In this document: positions 47,749 through 51,795 of the stretch, piece by piece
Layout of the letters: every line of letters begins with the position of its first letter
Numbering within the stretch: the stretch's first letter is position 1
Made by a program: the position numbers and the translations under genes
Notes under the pieces: model-generated
Database searches by the model: none
Told to the model about the DNA's origin: nothing
Seen by the model: the letters and a program-made list of their open reading frames with translations, nothing else
Assembly: GCA_029531755.1 (NCBI GenBank)
Contig: CM055977.1
Location: 30,366,229-30,430,228, forward strand
From: Holothuria leucospilota
Taxonomy: Eukaryota
Direction of reading: 5' to 3'
DNA: 64,000 nt

Positions 47749-50700
47749 TAGGCTGCCTAAAATAAGTTTTTTGTCGGAAATAATTCTAATCAAAGAAAAT
47801 TTGGTATCAATGTAATCGGCATCACGTGTATATTATCGTGATATAATGCCTCCAGTCACACATGTTGGGGGTTTTGAGTAATTTGCATAAATTCAAAATG
47901 GCCGCCATTCTCAACTTTGAGAGCCTGTATCTCCTTAAGGGTTGATGTTATCACCCATAAATGTATTACCGATGGATAGAAACATGATCCCAAATTAGCA
48001 AATTATCATATTAAAAATACTTTATGACGTATCTATGACGTCACATGGGTAAAATCACGTGATATTAGGTCATAAGGACTCGAAATGGGGTATAGGCCAT
48101 GGGCCACAGGGCACTTTACGTGCACTCCCACCCCACCACTCTCGGACCGATCTTCTGTTTGGAAATCTATGGTTCCCTGTACACGAGGAGTAAATATTTT
48201 GGGTCTCACTCATTCAAAATGGCTGCCAAAAACAAAATGGCGGTAAAAATTATGAATATTTTGTATTAAATAAAAATAAAGAAAATATTTGCAAAAAATA
48301 TTTTTGAGCCATTAACATTTAAAATTTAGTCATATTTTATGACATTAATTCCAAAATTAATTTTTGGGACTGTATTGGTGAGATTCAGATCAACCAAAAT
48401 GGCGGAAAAACAAAATGGCAACCAATGTAACGATCATAATGTATTAAAATAATCACTAAAAATAATCATTTAAAATACTTTTGACCCAGTTGGCCTTAAT
48501 ATATGGCCATATTTTGTGAGAAATAATTCAAAATTATTTTTCAAAATATTTCTTTTGGAATTCAGGTCAACCAAGATGGAGGAAAAAGCAAAATGGTCGC
48601 CGATGCAATGATTATGTCATTATATTATAATAACGAGAAAAATAATCATTAAAAATACTTTTCACACAAGTATACCTATCCAGTGCCCATATTCTGTTGT
48701 AAATATTTCCAAAATAATTTTCTGGACACTTTTGCAGGATTCGGTTCAACCAAGATGGCGGAAATATCAAAATGGCCGGTAATGTTTAAATTTTAATATA
48801 TTATAAAAATAGGGAAAATAATACTTAAAAACTATATTTGTGAACATTGCTATTTAGATTTGGCTGTATTTTGAGCCCAATAATCCAAATGTATATTCAA
48901 AACATTTTTGTTGAAATTCAGGTCAACCAAGATGGCGGAAGAAGCAAAATGGCCGCCAGTGGTGAAATTGCAATATTTTGAATTAATAAGGAAAACAATC
49001 GTTAAAAAATATTTTTAATACATTTAAATGCAAAACCTGCCCTTAATCTGTAGTAAACATTCAGGAAGTATTTTTCTGGACATATTTTACATCTTCCAGG
49101 TCAACCAAGATAGCGAAAATAGCGAAATGGCCAGCCCATATAATTATTATGTAATTATAATATATTAAAATAATGAGAAAAGTATTTATGAGAAATATGT
49201 TTGACACACTTGCTCTTAATATATGGCCTCATTTTATGCCAAATAACTAAAAATACTTTTTAGAACATTTTTGTTGGAAGTCATGCCAACCAAGATGGCG
49301 GAAAAAACAAAATGGCCGCCAACGGTATGTTTTCAATGTAGCATAATAATAAGGAATATAATCCGTAAAATATATTTGCAACACATTTAAACCTAAAGTC
49401 TGTTCATATTCTGTAACAAATATTCAGAAAGTATTCTTTGGACATCTTTTGCTGGATCCAGTTCAACCAAGGTGGCGGAAATAACCAAATTGGGTATTTT
49501 CCTTCAGATTATAATGTATTGCTATTGTCACATTGGTGAGCAAATTGCTTTTCTACCATCTTGGTTGACCTCCTTTCCACCAAAAATGTTGTGAAAACTT
49601 AGTTGCGATTATTTCGGCATAAAATGTGGACATATTTAAGAAACAAGTGTGTCAAACATATTATTTATGAATATTTTTCTCATTATATATATATATATAT
49701 ATATATATATATATATATATATATATATATATATATATATATATATATATATATATATATATATATATATATATATATATATATATATATATATATATAT
49801 ATATATATATATATATATATATATATAATTATTATGTAGACAGCTATTTTGCTTTTAACGCCATCTTGATTGCAATGAATTCCAACCATAATGTTTTTAA
49901 AAGTAATTTTAAGTTATTCGGCGTAATATGAGGCCATACATTCAGAGGAAATGTGTCAAACATATTTGTCATAAATATTTATCTCATTATTTCACTGTAA
50001 TATTATAATTATATAATAATTATATGGGGGCCATTTAGCTATTTCTGTCATCTTGGTTGAACTGGATCCAGCAAAAGATGTCCAGAAAAATATTTTCTGA
50101 ATATTTCTTACAGAATATGAGCAGACTTTAGGTTTAAATGTGTTGCAAATATGTTTTACGGATTATATTCCTTATTATTATGCTATATTGTAAAGTTACC
50201 ATTGGCGGCCATTTTGCCTTTTCCGCCATCTTGGTTGGCGTCAATTCAAACAAAAATGTTCTAAAAGGTAATTTTTAGTTATTTGGCATAAAATATGGCC
50301 ATATATTAAGAGCAAGTGTGTCAAACATATTTCTCATAAATACTTTTCTCATTATTTCAATATATTATAACAAGTACATAACAATTATATGGGCTGGCCA
50401 TTTCGCTATTTTCGCTATCTTGGTTGACCTGGAAGATGTAAAATATGTCCAGAAAAATACTTCCTGAATGTTTATTACAGATTATGGGCATATTTTGCGT
50501 TTAAATGTGTTACAAATGTTTTTTAAGGATCAGTTTCCTTAAAATATTGCAATTTCACCACTGGCGGCCATTTTGCTTCTTCCGCCATCTTGGTTGACCT
50601 GAATTTCAACAAAAACGTTTTGAAAATAGATTTGGATTATTGGGCTCAAAATACAGCCAAATCTAAATAGCAATGTTCACAAATATAGTTTTTAAGTATT

Positions 50701-51795
50701 ATTTTCCCTATTATTATAACATATTGAAATTTAAACATTAGCGGCCATTTTGATATTTCCACCATCTTGGTTGAACCGAATCCTGCAAAAGTGTCCAGAA
50801 AATTATTTTGGAAATATTTACAACAGAATATGGGCACAGGATAGGTATACTTGTGTGAAAAGTATTTTTAATGATTATTTTTCTCATTATTATAATATAA
50901 TGACATAATCATTGCATCGGCGACCATTTTGCTTTTTCCGCCATCTTGGTTGACCTGAATTCCAAAAGAAATATTTTGAAAAATAATTTTGAATTATTTC
51001 TCACAAAATATGGCCATATATTAAGGCCAACTGTGTCAAAAGTATTTTAAATGATTATTTTTAGTGATTATTTTAATACATTATGATCGTTACATTGGTT
51101 GCCATTTTGTTCTTCCGCCATTTTGGTTGCCCTGAATCTCACCAATACAGTCCCAACAATTAATTTTGGAATTAATGTCATAAAATATGACTAAATTTTA
51201 AGTGTTAATGGCTCAAAAATATTTTTTACGAATATTTTCTTTATTTTTATTTAATACAAAATATTCATAATGTTTTACAGCCATTTTGTTTTAGGCAGCC
51301 ATTTTGAATGAATGAGACCCAAAATATTTACTCCTACTACTTGATTACATGTACAGGGAACCATAAGGTTTCCAAACAAAAGATCGGTCCGAGAGTGGTG
51401 GGGTGGGAGTGCACGTGAAGTGCCCTCTGGCCCATGGTCTATACGCCATTTTGAGTCCTTATGACCTAATATCACGTGATTTTACCCATGTGACGTCATA
51501 GATACGTCATAAAGTATTTTTAATATGATAACTTGCTAATTTGGTATCATGTTTCTATCCATCGGTAATACATTTATGGGCGATATTATCAACCCCTAAG
51601 GAGATACAGGCTCTCAAAGTTAAGAATGGCGGCCATTTTGAATTTATGCAAATTATTCAAAACCCCCAACATGTGTGACTGGAGGCATTATCTCATGATA
51701 TTGTACACATAATACCGATTCCATTGATACCAAATTTCCTTTGATTAGAATTATTTCCGGCAAAGACCTATTTTTTGCTTATTTTAGGCAGCCTA
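47749..51795. mobile_element. Foldback-type element (about 4 kb) with roughly 2-kb inverted arms made of about 180-bp tandem units
   Basis: Outer 480 bp at 47749-48230 is the reverse complement of 51300-51795 (for example 'taggctgcctaaaataag...' against '...cttattttaggcagccta'). Inside each arm are five or six units of about 180 bp containing 'caaccaagatggcggaaa.agcaaaatggccgcc'. The left arm is in forward orientation up to about 49500, and the right arm (49550-51290) is in reverse orientation ('ccatcttggttgacc'). Confidence 0.8.
49687..49827. repeat. (AT)~70 microsatellite within the foldback right arm
   Basis: Perfect AT dinucleotide run. It accounts for the six-frame ORFs made of IYIY. 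Confidence 0.95.

Follow-up and report, generated by a model that had tools for sequence, protein, structure and literature searches.

The 64-kb window (the whole stretch of Holothuria leucospilota DNA analysed here) contains a foldback-shaped element of 4047 nt at positions 47749-51795, bounded exactly where a preliminary description of this DNA had placed it; no other large inverted repeat occurs in the window. We favour, with moderate confidence, the interpretation that it is one copy of a non-autonomous foldback-type DNA transposon inserted in an intron of MVP, the major vault protein gene. Inverted arms, tandem units, an asymmetric centre and a (TA)n tract were all confirmed. The preliminary interpretation is partly supported: the foldback shape, the non-coding character, the sharp ends and the location in MVP stood, whereas the likeness to Drosophila FB elements beyond overall shape and the potential for cruciform extrusion did not. 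As had been recognized, the element occupies an MVP intron; the gene lies on the + strand and the intron, of ∼ 7 kb, between exons ending at ∼ 46067 and starting at ∼ 53027. The suggestion that this is the largest MVP intron is not supported: a longer gap separates the mapped exons at 35326 and 43327. There are no N gaps in the window.

Inverted arms and tandem units

Gapped alignment of the left arm (47749-49490, 1742 nt) with the inverted right arm (50033-51795, 1763 nt) gave 94.9% identity over 1734 aligned columns. Arms of about 2 kb had been proposed; the inversion holds, and the arms measure 1.74 and 1.76 kb. They differ by 89 substitutions (57 transitions and 32 transversions; 14 of the 89 are CpG-type changes) and by eight indels of 1-12 nt, four of a single base and four of 3-12 nt. 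Each arm is composed of a unique outer domain of ∼ 465 nt followed by seven tandem units of ∼ 178 nt in mirror register. Neither inverted nor direct similarity was detected in the flanks beyond 47749 and 51795, and a palindrome longer than these limits was rejected for that reason.

The left outer domain (47749-48213, + orientation, 465 nt) begins with the terminal 18-mer TAGGCTGCCTAAAATAAG and is 93.8% identical to its mirror image, the right outer domain (51307-51795, - orientation, 489 nt). Compared with the left copy, the latter has three insertions (10, 1 and 12 nt); the inverted 18-mer (51778-51795) forms its end. With these three indels the domain is not perfect or near-perfect over at least 480 bp, as had been claimed; perfect identity of the arms is confined to the terminal 16-18 nt. 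The 18-mer was found at the two element ends only, in inverted orientation (chance expectation 0.02 matches), and no further occurrence with up to 3 mismatches was seen in the window. The palindromes reported earlier for the outer segments are present, TGACGTCA once per arm (48036 and 51491) and CACGTG at 47823 and 48056 in the left arm and 51412 and 51473 in the right; the left domain also holds AAAATGGCCG at 47895. Across the 64-kb window CACGTG occurs 8 times against 4.2 expected, which is not above chance.

The left tandem array (L1-L7, 48214-49463, + orientation) has units starting at 48214, 48391, 48568, 48747, 48924, 49102 and 49287. The right array (R7-R1, 50060-51306, - orientation) mirrors L7-L1, the successive pairs being 93, 94, 92, 95, 98, 98 and 95% identical. 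The units are 177-189 nt long (177-185 nt in the left array), in agreement with the earlier figure of about 180 bp, and seven are paired per arm. Two unit subtypes alternate in the left array, giving a higher-order period of ∼ 363 nt. Since units are 92-98% identical to their mirror partners and only 56-78% identical among themselves, the array long predates the event by which the arms were last equalized.

Every unit opens with a core of the form CAACCAAGATGGCGGAA-N4-CAAAATGGCCGCC. Judged from the alignment of the units, this 34-nt core is more constrained than the remainder of the unit (mean pairwise identity 0.82 vs. 0.63, p = 5e-5). It contains two AAnATGGCnG sites, 17 nt apart, that resemble the YY1 consensus. 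When the window was searched with that consensus (CAAGATGGCGGC, ≤ 2 mismatches), 22 of the 27 matches fell inside the element (1.9 expected for the whole window); without exception, those in the left arm are + strand matches and those from R9 onwards to the right are - strand matches. We suggest by analogy that the core may act as a reiterated protein-binding site, either a secondary transposase site as in Galileo or a site for a host factor of the YY1/Pho type. The core has a motif of ∼ 30 nt in common with an adjacent family of 56-bp repeats (alignment score 25; shuffled sequences averaged 15.4 and reached at most 23). In all, two other tandem-repeat families of the MVP gene have a short motif in common with the unit core.

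The asymmetric centre and its folding potential

Between the arms lies an unpaired centre of 542-596 nt, within a middle region (49464-50059) that comprises L8, R10, R9 and R8. The partial unit L8 (49464-49517, + orientation, 54 nt) meets the partial unit R10 (49518-49567, 50 nt) head to head near 49517. This agrees with the earlier placement of the orientation switch at 49500-49550 and not at the (AT)n tract. R9 (49568-49872) and R8 (49873-50059) are full, extra units in right-arm orientation with no left partner; the centre is asymmetric, as had been described. The arm-arm alignment extends 27 nt into the unit-8 cores (49490/50033), where similarity is as between any two cores. L8 and R10 are 57% alike, compared with 95% for the arms in a register shifted by two units.

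The (TA)72 tract (49684-49827) is a perfect dinucleotide repeat of 144 bp (100% matches) located in R9. An (AT)n tract of 140 bp had been assigned to the first unit of the right arm; the tract is confirmed, but R9 belongs to the unpaired centre and not to a paired arm. Paralogous units carry an AT-rich ATTATAATATAT patch at the corresponding place, as the preliminary description had proposed for the origin of the tract, and slippage from the patch of one unit would explain the expansion. The unpaired centre has its midpoint at 49761.5, 6 nt away from that of (TA)72 (49755.5). However, the two sides of the middle are not complementary (alignment score 20 vs. a shuffle mean of 19.1). The tract was therefore rejected as a hidden centre of symmetry, and we treat its near-central position as coincidence.

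Because the element lies inside an MVP intron, its + strand is the transcribed strand. The predicted fold of the + strand RNA has a minimum free energy of -2828.5 kcal/mol, with 1667 of 1864 pairs formed arm to arm and perfect helices of up to 102 bp; (TA)72 is predicted to form its own hairpin of ∼ 70 bp. Transcribed with the MVP pre-mRNA, the element should, according to this model, fold into ∼ 1.7 kb of double-stranded RNA. The hpRNA loci that yield Dicer-dependent endo-siRNAs are transcribed long inverted repeats whose arms are copies of target genes (PMC10317233). The element resembles them in being a transcribed long inverted repeat with predicted extended double-stranded RNA, but its arms match no protein-coding sequence.

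With a non-complementary spacer of 542-596 nt and arms that diverge by 5%, duplex DNA is unlikely to extrude a whole-arm cruciform; the cruciform of several hundred bp envisaged earlier is not upheld, and fold-back of the element DNA would need long single-stranded DNA. In yeast, lengthening the spacer of inverted repeats from 12 to 20 bp cuts recombination ∼ 40-fold (PMC10164571). Palindromic AT-rich repeats (PATRR) and quasi-palindromes that break chromosomes have almost no spacer (PMC10164571, PMC7999016). The element has in common with these a long inverted repeat and an AT-rich middle, and (TA)72 is itself a perfect palindrome, the sole spacer-free one in the element. As a whole, however, the element is not a near-perfect palindrome with little spacer.

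Element ends, coding capacity and comparison with foldback systems

The trinucleotide TCT adjoins the end of the inverted homology on both sides (47746-47748 and 51796-51798) and constitutes a candidate 3-bp target-site duplication (TSD). It is the only clean flanking direct repeat, with a chance match at fixed ends of 1/64. The preliminary description had put forward 'tct' or 'tctt'; the 3-bp repeat is present at both ends, and the longer one is a possible reading with shifted ends. TCT is weak evidence for a TSD because it comprises 3 bp only and a scan of nearby end positions gave several equally good short matches (TA, TCTT and a 7-bp match with one mismatch). The 7-bp match, TCTTAGG/TCTTTGG, requires the left end to lie 4 nt inside the inverted repeat. 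We found no direct repeat of 8-10 bp with ≤ 1 mismatch at or within 6 nt of the element ends, none of 7-8 bp with symmetric ends, and at the ends none of the 7-10-bp duplications that Mutator/FB, P/Galileo or hAT elements generate. Among the signatures of element ends, a TWA target is characteristic of PIF/Harbinger and CACTA termini of EnSpm. When these two signatures were compared with the element neither matched: the flanking TCT differs from TWA, and the termini, which read TAGGCTGCC, differ from CACTA. In length, TCT fits the 3-bp TSD of PIF/Harbinger, EnSpm/CACTA and AcademX (PMC7165386, PMC2213677).

The element has no coding capacity. Its open reading frames do not exceed 78 aa, and the longest run through the (TA) tract. 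Seven concatenated pseudo-ORF peptides from the outer domain and units were compared with 5.8 billion proteins, and none of the 534 word-sharing candidates reached E ≤ 1. The element encodes nothing, so a transposase would have acted in trans. A MULE at 5668-10245 of the window has terminal inverted repeats (TIRs) built of 13-nt GGGGGCGAACTGG-type subrepeats and an ORF 100% identical to HOLleu_33687, a match that marks H. leucospilota as the host. This MULE (5.7-10.2 kb) was considered as the autonomous partner and rejected, the two having no common termini in a comparison with this one MULE copy. The window holds a second TE-like composite, in which a 145-bp array lies between inverted 56-bp repeats. 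Together these show that TE-like composites with repeat-built inverted arms exist in the H. leucospilota genome.

Searches for relatives were negative within their scope. Neither a second copy (blastn with the element and its flanks) nor an empty-site paralogue (blastn with the flanks) was found in the 64-kb window; an unrelated SINE-like repeat was detected by blastn 40 nt to the right of the element. Exact-pattern scans gave 0 matches for the unit core and an outer-domain 22-mer in metagenome contigs, and 0 matches for the unit core in prokaryote genomes and viral contigs. Full-text literature held no match to 15-20-mers of the core, the termini or the neighbouring SINE-like repeat, and the Holothuria satellite literature offered nothing usable. 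A 1990 NAR paper reportedly describes a complex Holothuria satellite that may be linked to the unit. With respect to RNA genes, neither Rfam (at gathering thresholds) nor ARAGORN (for tRNAs) gave a match in the window.

Three features of the foldback-type structural class (FB, TU, Tetris and Galileo-2T) are present. TIRs make up 1742 + 1763 of the 4047 nt, each arm contains seven internal tandem units, and the middle is non-coding, lacks a transposase ORF and is built of extra units. The arms of Drosophila FB elements consist of short repeats (10 to ∼ 31 bp) extending almost to the tips; their TSD is 8-9 bp. The sea-urchin TU elements, which provide an echinoderm precedent for the class, have outer domains of ∼ 15-bp repeats and likewise an 8-9-bp TSD; Potter 1980 and Liebermann 1983 are cited in PMC4079207. 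FB and TU are non-coding or mostly non-coding and, like the element, dominated by long inverted arms with tandem repeats. However, membership of the FB/TU group is unsupported because its tips are unique, its units are ∼ 178 nt long and it lacks an 8-9-bp duplication. More generally, the Mutator/FB superfamily (FB, Tetris and Tm1) makes 8-10-bp TSDs (PMC4079207); the element has neither such a TSD nor termini in common with the window MULE.

The closest published layouts are those of Tetris and Galileo. In Tetris of Drosophila virilis, TIRs of up to 1,735 bp consist of a flanking domain and ∼ 220-bp tandem repeats around a variable non-coding middle; there are no ORFs, and repeat number varies between copies and between alleles (PMC4079207). 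The arms described here (1,742/1,763 nt) likewise place a unique flanking domain before ∼ 178-nt units and enclose a non-coding middle, with no ORFs. Tetris also has a separate inner TIR domain, is a multi-copy family and makes an 8-10-bp TSD, hence its assignment to Mutator (PMC4079207). In contrast, only 3 bp (TCT) flank our element, and one copy is known in the 64-kb window as opposed to a dispersed multi-copy family; the comparison is with the published description of an element from a different phylum. Galileo F copies have ∼ 210-bp tandem repeats inside their TIRs, and the number of repeats can differ between both TIRs of a copy (PMC3573991). The repeats start a few hundred bp from the tip and provide multiple secondary transposase-binding sites (PMC3573991, PMC3688188). 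Long, internally repetitive TIRs and unequal unit numbers are common to Galileo and our element. Galileo, a member of the P superfamily, differs in its 7-bp TSD, compared with 8 bp for P itself, in TIRs of at most 1.2 kb and in autonomous copies that encode a THAP-domain P-like transposase (PMC3573991, PMC3688188), whereas here the arms exceed 1.2 kb, a clean 7-bp TSD is lacking and no transposase is linked to the element. Our best reading, by analogy, is a domain layout closest to Tetris and Galileo rather than to the FB family proper. The resemblance to Drosophila FB-type elements that had been noted thus holds for overall shape; the layout is Tetris/Galileo-like, with no 7-10-bp TSD.

Origin of the element and its significance

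An architecture like that of published foldback elements, the sharp ends with a perfect terminal 18 nt and the flanking TCT speak for a transposon, as do the absence of coding capacity, the age of the array relative to the last equalization of the arms, the constrained core with its clustered YY1-like sites and the other TE-like composites of the window; the single copy in the 64-kb window, a flanking repeat of only 3 bp, the lack of a 7-10-bp duplication and of a matching superfamily end signature, and the many tandem arrays in MVP introns speak against. On the transposon interpretation, an old and now probably immobile cut-and-paste element inserted into the MVP intron of H. leucospilota. 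Unequal exchange within an arm would let unit numbers drift and would explain the two extra right units. Intramolecular pairing and repair may keep the arms alike, or may have equalized them ∼ 5% divergence ago.

The serious rival is a local origin, possible but in our view unlikely, in which an old 178-bp array and ∼ 465 nt of adjacent intron were inverted in place by fold-back priming or replication template switching and then diverged by ∼ 5%, without ever being mobile. MVP introns contain several tandem arrays, unrelated or distantly related, and this abundance makes a local array followed by inverted duplication plausible. The single copy in the window and the lack of a convincing TSD longer than 3 bp are in keeping with such an origin, the ∼ 30-nt motif of the unit core in the adjacent 56-bp repeat family hints at local kinship, and the quasi-symmetric junction of truncated units (54 + 50 nt) at ∼ 49517 is what a fold-back centre would leave. 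However, L8 and R10 are much less alike than the arms in their two-unit-shifted register (57% vs. 95%), so a simple one-step fold-back fails to give the present structure. In addition, the succession of flanking domain, repeats and variable middle is specific to foldback transposons as described, the inverted homology terminates at the same nucleotide on either side with a direct TCT outside, and de novo 4-kb palindromes are generally much rarer than TE insertions.

We consider it quite improbable that two one-armed copies, each a head with a tandem-repeat tail, inserted tail to tail. One-armed satellite carriers of this type, Helentron-associated or MITE-like, occur in other marine invertebrates. 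The 5% difference between the arms would be typical of family members with unequal unit numbers, and truncated and extra units are expected where two variable tails meet. Yet two insertions without unique DNA between them would be needed. The copies would have to share seven diverged units in identical order (92-98% between counterparts), their innermost units are cut almost equally short (54 and 50 nt), and the 64-kb window contains no one-armed copy. An assembly artefact (a palindromic long read from a missed adapter, or an inverted haplotype join) is highly improbable: although the assembly was made with wtdbg from PacBio Sequel CLR reads of a 2.11% heterozygous, ∼ 61% repetitive genome (PMC10120082), half of the eight arm-to-arm indels are of a single base and the length of (TA)72 is the kind of feature on which CLR consensus errs, the 89 substitutions with their transition bias (57:32) and 14 CpG-type changes against only 8 indels indicate real mutation and not CLR error or a read-through palindrome, and the 5.1% arm divergence is well above the allelic 2.1%. 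Moreover, the homology ends agree to the nucleotide and each adjoins a unique flank of its own; the two flanks follow one another, correctly ordered and oriented, within a single MVP intron, and the window has no N gap.

We return to the foldback transposon as our preferred reading. The element is real but fairly ordinary and leaves current understanding of foldback elements unchanged. A unique tip followed by nucleosome-sized tandem units is a layout with known roles in the seeding of satellite DNA and in inversions. The arrays of near-consensus YY1-type sites give a testable idea of what the reiterated core may bind. A potential double-stranded RNA of 1.7 kb together with (TA)72 in an MVP intron is relevant to splicing, RNA editing, small RNAs and assembly quality. 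There is a small chance that the element belongs to a dispersed foldback family of holothurians in which paired YY1/Pho-consensus-like sites are arrayed along the arms. If so, intron insertions would spread both sources of long hairpin RNA and clusters of YY1-type sites, which are candidate modules for looping or Polycomb recruitment, and the motif in common with two other repeat families would point to a single DNA-binding protein that reads several satellite-bearing elements of the genome. Confirmation that the element has a family of copies would establish a Tetris/Galileo-like foldback transposon in a sea cucumber and extend this layout beyond Drosophila.

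Element boundaries and genomic setting

The element (47749-51795; 4,047 bp) has two long arms in inverted orientation. Aligned with gaps, 47749-49490 and 51795-50033 are 94.9% identical over 1,734 aligned columns, with 89 substitutions (57 transitions and 32 transversions; 14 are of CpG-decay type) and 8 indels of 1-12 nt, corresponding to a divergence of 5.1% (K2P 0.053). The window contains just two copies of the terminal 18-mer TAGGCTGCCTAAAATAAG, one per end in inverted orientation (0.02 chance matches expected). Outside the ends, similarity does not continue in either inverted or direct orientation (alignment scores 21 and 19; shuffle mean 20.8), and no second large inverted repeat was found within the 64-kb window. 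The coordinates and overall layout proposed in the preliminary description are therefore correct. Its 'perfect or near-perfect' termini over 480 bp are overstated, because the outer domains, both of unique sequence (47749-48213, 465 nt; 51307-51795, 489 nt), are only 93.8% identical with three indels and match perfectly only in the last 16-18 nt. Mismatches between the arms are distributed unevenly: each 200 nt contains 3-5 in mid-arm (around 48349-48749), 17 at the outer tip and 13-16 close to the centre, a pattern that patchy gene conversion from arm to arm could explain. To the left of the element are GGGGGGCTGAAAGCCCCC (47632-47649) and GGGGGGGGCTTAGCCTGGGAAAGCCCCC (47716-47743), G-run/C-run stem-loops ∼ 85 nt apart, with 5 nt between the second and the element's left end. 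They may represent the terminus of a different repeat or indicate a favoured site of insertion.

Searches with fragments of the major vault protein (MVP; tblastn) placed exons on the + strand at ∼ 33.9, 35.2, 43.3, 44.0, 44.5, 45.5 and 45.9-46.07 kb, and further exons at 53.03-53.17, 53.9, 55.0-55.2, 56.2-56.4, 57.5 and 58.7 kb; the best named match was S. purpuratus MVP (66% identity). The element lies inside the intron 46068-53026 and occupies 4.05 of its 6.96 kb. It had been assigned to the largest intron of MVP; an MVP intron it is, but a longer gap separates the exons mapped at 35326 and 43327.

The MVP introns in the window are unusually loaded with tandem repeats. A 145-bp family forms three arrays in the same orientation (32459-33664, 36883-38323 and 40642-42159) within 10 kb of MVP introns, with higher-order periods of 290/435 bp. 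The third array sits in a second foldback-like arrangement (40317-42875), bracketed by units of a 56-bp repeat, approximately two inverted (40317-40440) and nine direct (42378-42875), whose complementarity is 84-93%; a 38-nt segment is common to the 145-bp and 56-bp units (score 49, shuffle mean 16). The 56-bp family (42378-42875; 63350-63461) recurs 20 kb downstream together with adjacent sequence (43004-43091 and 63499-63586, 91% match). On the right, 40 nt beyond the element, is a SINE-like repeat (51835-52064) whose head resembles a tRNA (…GGTTCGATTCCCAGGTCGAG…); another intron holds a 78% identical, oppositely oriented copy (35573-35807). ARAGORN called no tRNA here and Rfam gave no match. 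A Mutator-like element (5668-10245) carries - strand ORFs at 7624-8124, 8128-9051 and 9154-9483 with MULE transposase (E = 3.5e-10), FLYWCH and PHD domains. Its 308-aa ORF (8128-9051) is 100% identical to Holothuria leucospilota HOLleu_33687, annotated 'hypothetical protein', and this match assigns the window to that sea cucumber. The Mutator-like element has at its ends inverted arms of ∼ 100 nt (5668-5775 and 10141-10245) composed of GGGGGCGAACTGG-type 13-nt subrepeats, contains a 151-bp tandem array (5902-6540) and shares no termini with the foldback element.

Tandem units, asymmetric centre and folding

Each arm continues inwards from its outer domain as a tandem array. The left units L1-L7 start at 48214, 48391, 48568, 48747, 48924, 49102 and 49287 (177-185 nt each), and the right units R1-R7 are their mirror images. 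Mirror partners share 92-98% identity, whereas a unit matches the other units at only 56-78%. Two unit subtypes alternate, giving the higher-order period of 363-365 nt reported by repeat finders. Every unit opens with the core CAACCAAGATGGCGGAA-N4-CAAAATGGCCGCC; among independent units, mean pairwise identity is 0.82 in the core (first 34 columns) and 0.63 in the remaining columns (Mann-Whitney P = 5e-5).

The arm alignment stops at 49490/50033, 27 nt inside the eighth-unit core on either side. Over these 27 nt the two sides resemble each other no better than any pair of cores does, so mirror homology may stop at the boundary of unit 7 (49463/50060), which gives a middle region of 542-596 nt. 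It contains a truncated left unit (L8, 54 nt) head to head at ∼ 49517 with a truncated right unit (R10, 50 nt), followed by two complete units in right-arm orientation without a left partner, R9 and R8. The latter two belong to the unit-6 subtype (R8 84%, R9 76% identical to L6). R9 holds (TA)72, a perfect 144-bp tract (49684-49827), at the position of the AT-rich ATTATAATATAT patch of paralogous units, which supports the earlier suggestion of a local expansion of this patch. The two sides of the tract lack complementarity (score 20; shuffle mean 19.1), and we therefore rejected it as a hidden symmetry centre. Its midpoint is 6 nt from that of the unpaired region, and we treat this near-central place as a coincidence.

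A cruciform several hundred bp long, as initially envisaged, overstates the case: given the non-complementary 542-596-nt spacer and the 5% divergence, extrusion of whole arms from duplex DNA is unlikely. In yeast, recombination falls ∼ 40-fold when an inverted-repeat spacer grows from 12 to 20 bp and declines exponentially with divergence; for repeats that are both divergent and far apart, interaction requires exposure of long single-stranded DNA (PMC10164571). The only spacer-free perfect palindrome in the element is (TA)72. The + strand of the element is transcribed within the MVP pre-mRNA. Its predicted RNA fold (-2828.5 kcal/mol) has 1,667 arm-to-arm pairs out of 1,864, with uninterrupted helices of up to 102 bp and the TA tract as a separate ∼ 70-bp hairpin. 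Long transcribed inverted repeats are substrates for endo-siRNA production in Drosophila (PMC10317233).

Origin of the element

On balance, the element is probably a copy of a non-autonomous foldback-type DNA transposon, a reading based on its layout, which matches Tetris of D. virilis and the Galileo F copies of Drosophila. Like Tetris, whose terminal inverted repeats reach 1,735 bp with a flanking domain of at most 866 bp and ∼ 220-bp repeats (PMC4079207), it has a unique flanking domain, tandem repeats of ∼ 200 bp in a ∼ 1.7-kb terminal inverted repeat, a variable non-coding middle and no ORF. Galileo F copies share this layout; their ∼ 210-bp repeats lie within the terminal inverted repeats, and the two ends of one copy can differ in repeat number (PMC3573991). 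The longest ORFs are ≤ 78 aa, the longest running through the TA tract, and seven pseudo-ORF peptides had no protein match at E ≤ 1. Neither Rfam nor ARAGORN matched an RNA gene, there is no second copy within the 64-kb window, and exact-pattern scans of metagenome, prokaryote-genome and viral collections gave 0 matches.

The trinucleotide TCT directly adjoins both ends (47746-47748 and 51796-51798), a 3-bp match that is weak evidence of a target-site duplication (TSD). Scanning lengths of 2-12 nt at end positions ± 6 nt also gave TA (ends GGCTGCC...) and TCTT but no direct repeat of 8-10 bp; a 7-bp TCTTAGG/TCTTTGG with one mismatch arises if the left end is shifted 4 nt inwards. TSDs are 8-10 bp in the Mutator/Foldback (FB) superfamily (PMC4079207) and 7 bp in P/Galileo (PMC3573991), whereas superfamilies with 2-4-bp TSDs include AcademX and EnSpm (PMC7165386) and PIF/Harbinger (PMC2213677). 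If real, TCT would thus point away from Mutator/FB, P/Galileo and hAT and towards AcademX, EnSpm and PIF/Harbinger. However, the termini lack the CACTA signature of EnSpm, and TCT does not fit the TWA target of PIF/Harbinger. The proposed resemblance to FB holds for the foldback-like shape, but family membership fails on TSD length and arm composition.

A serious alternative, though we consider it less likely, is that an old array of the intron was duplicated locally in inverted orientation. Tandem arrays abound in the MVP introns, a quasi-symmetric head-to-head junction is present, and the unit core (GGTCAACCAAGATGGCGGAAAAAGCAAAAT; 48386-48421 and other cores) shares a ∼ 30-nt motif with part of the neighbouring 56-bp repeat (GGTCACCAGAGGTCAAAAAGCAAAAT; 42378-42875), at a borderline local alignment score of 25 (shuffle mean 15.4, maximum 23; reached in 0 of 200 shuffles). 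This likeness could reflect common ancestry or a shared binding motif. However, L8 resembles R10 at only 57%, and the register that gives 95% lies two units off their junction, so a one-step fold-back does not yield the present structure. Tail-to-tail insertion of two one-armed elements is quite improbable, as it needs identical unit order in both copies and the absence of intervening DNA. An assembly artefact is very unlikely: the published H. leucospilota assembly used PacBio CLR reads and wtdbg on a 2.11% heterozygous genome (PMC10120082), but the arms differ mostly by transition-biased substitutions (57:32, 14 CpG-decay type) with only 8 indel events, a mutational spectrum unlike CLR errors or a read-through palindrome after consensus, their 5.1% divergence exceeds allelic divergence, both homology ends coincide to the nucleotide, and the two different unique flanks are consecutive parts of one intron.

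For a foldback-type transposon, unequal exchange may have shifted the unit number in one arm, giving the extra R8 and R9, and the (TA)n tract may have grown by slippage. Intramolecular pairing of the arms followed by repair may keep them alike, which would explain why mirror partners resemble each other more than neighbouring units do.

YY1-consensus-like motifs in the unit core

The motif AAnATGGCnG occurs twice in each core, at a spacing of 17 nt, and its first occurrence matches the YY1 consensus CAAGATGGCGGC (PMC13017510) at 11 of 12 positions. With up to two mismatches allowed, 22 of the 27 matches in the window fall inside the element, whereas chance predicts 1.9 over the entire window; left-arm matches are all on the + strand and those from R9 rightwards all on the - strand. 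The only perfect (12/12) match in the window is at 57810-57821 in an MVP intron, ∼ 235 nt downstream of the exon 57486-57575 and outside recognized repeats. By analogy with Galileo, whose terminal inverted repeats carry multiple THAP-domain sites (PMC3688188), a transposase supplied in trans might bind the tips and use the reiterated core as secondary sites; alternatively, the core might recruit a host factor of the YY1/Pho type. This array of near-consensus YY1-type sites in a conserved core is the one feature of the element that we single out as noteworthy.
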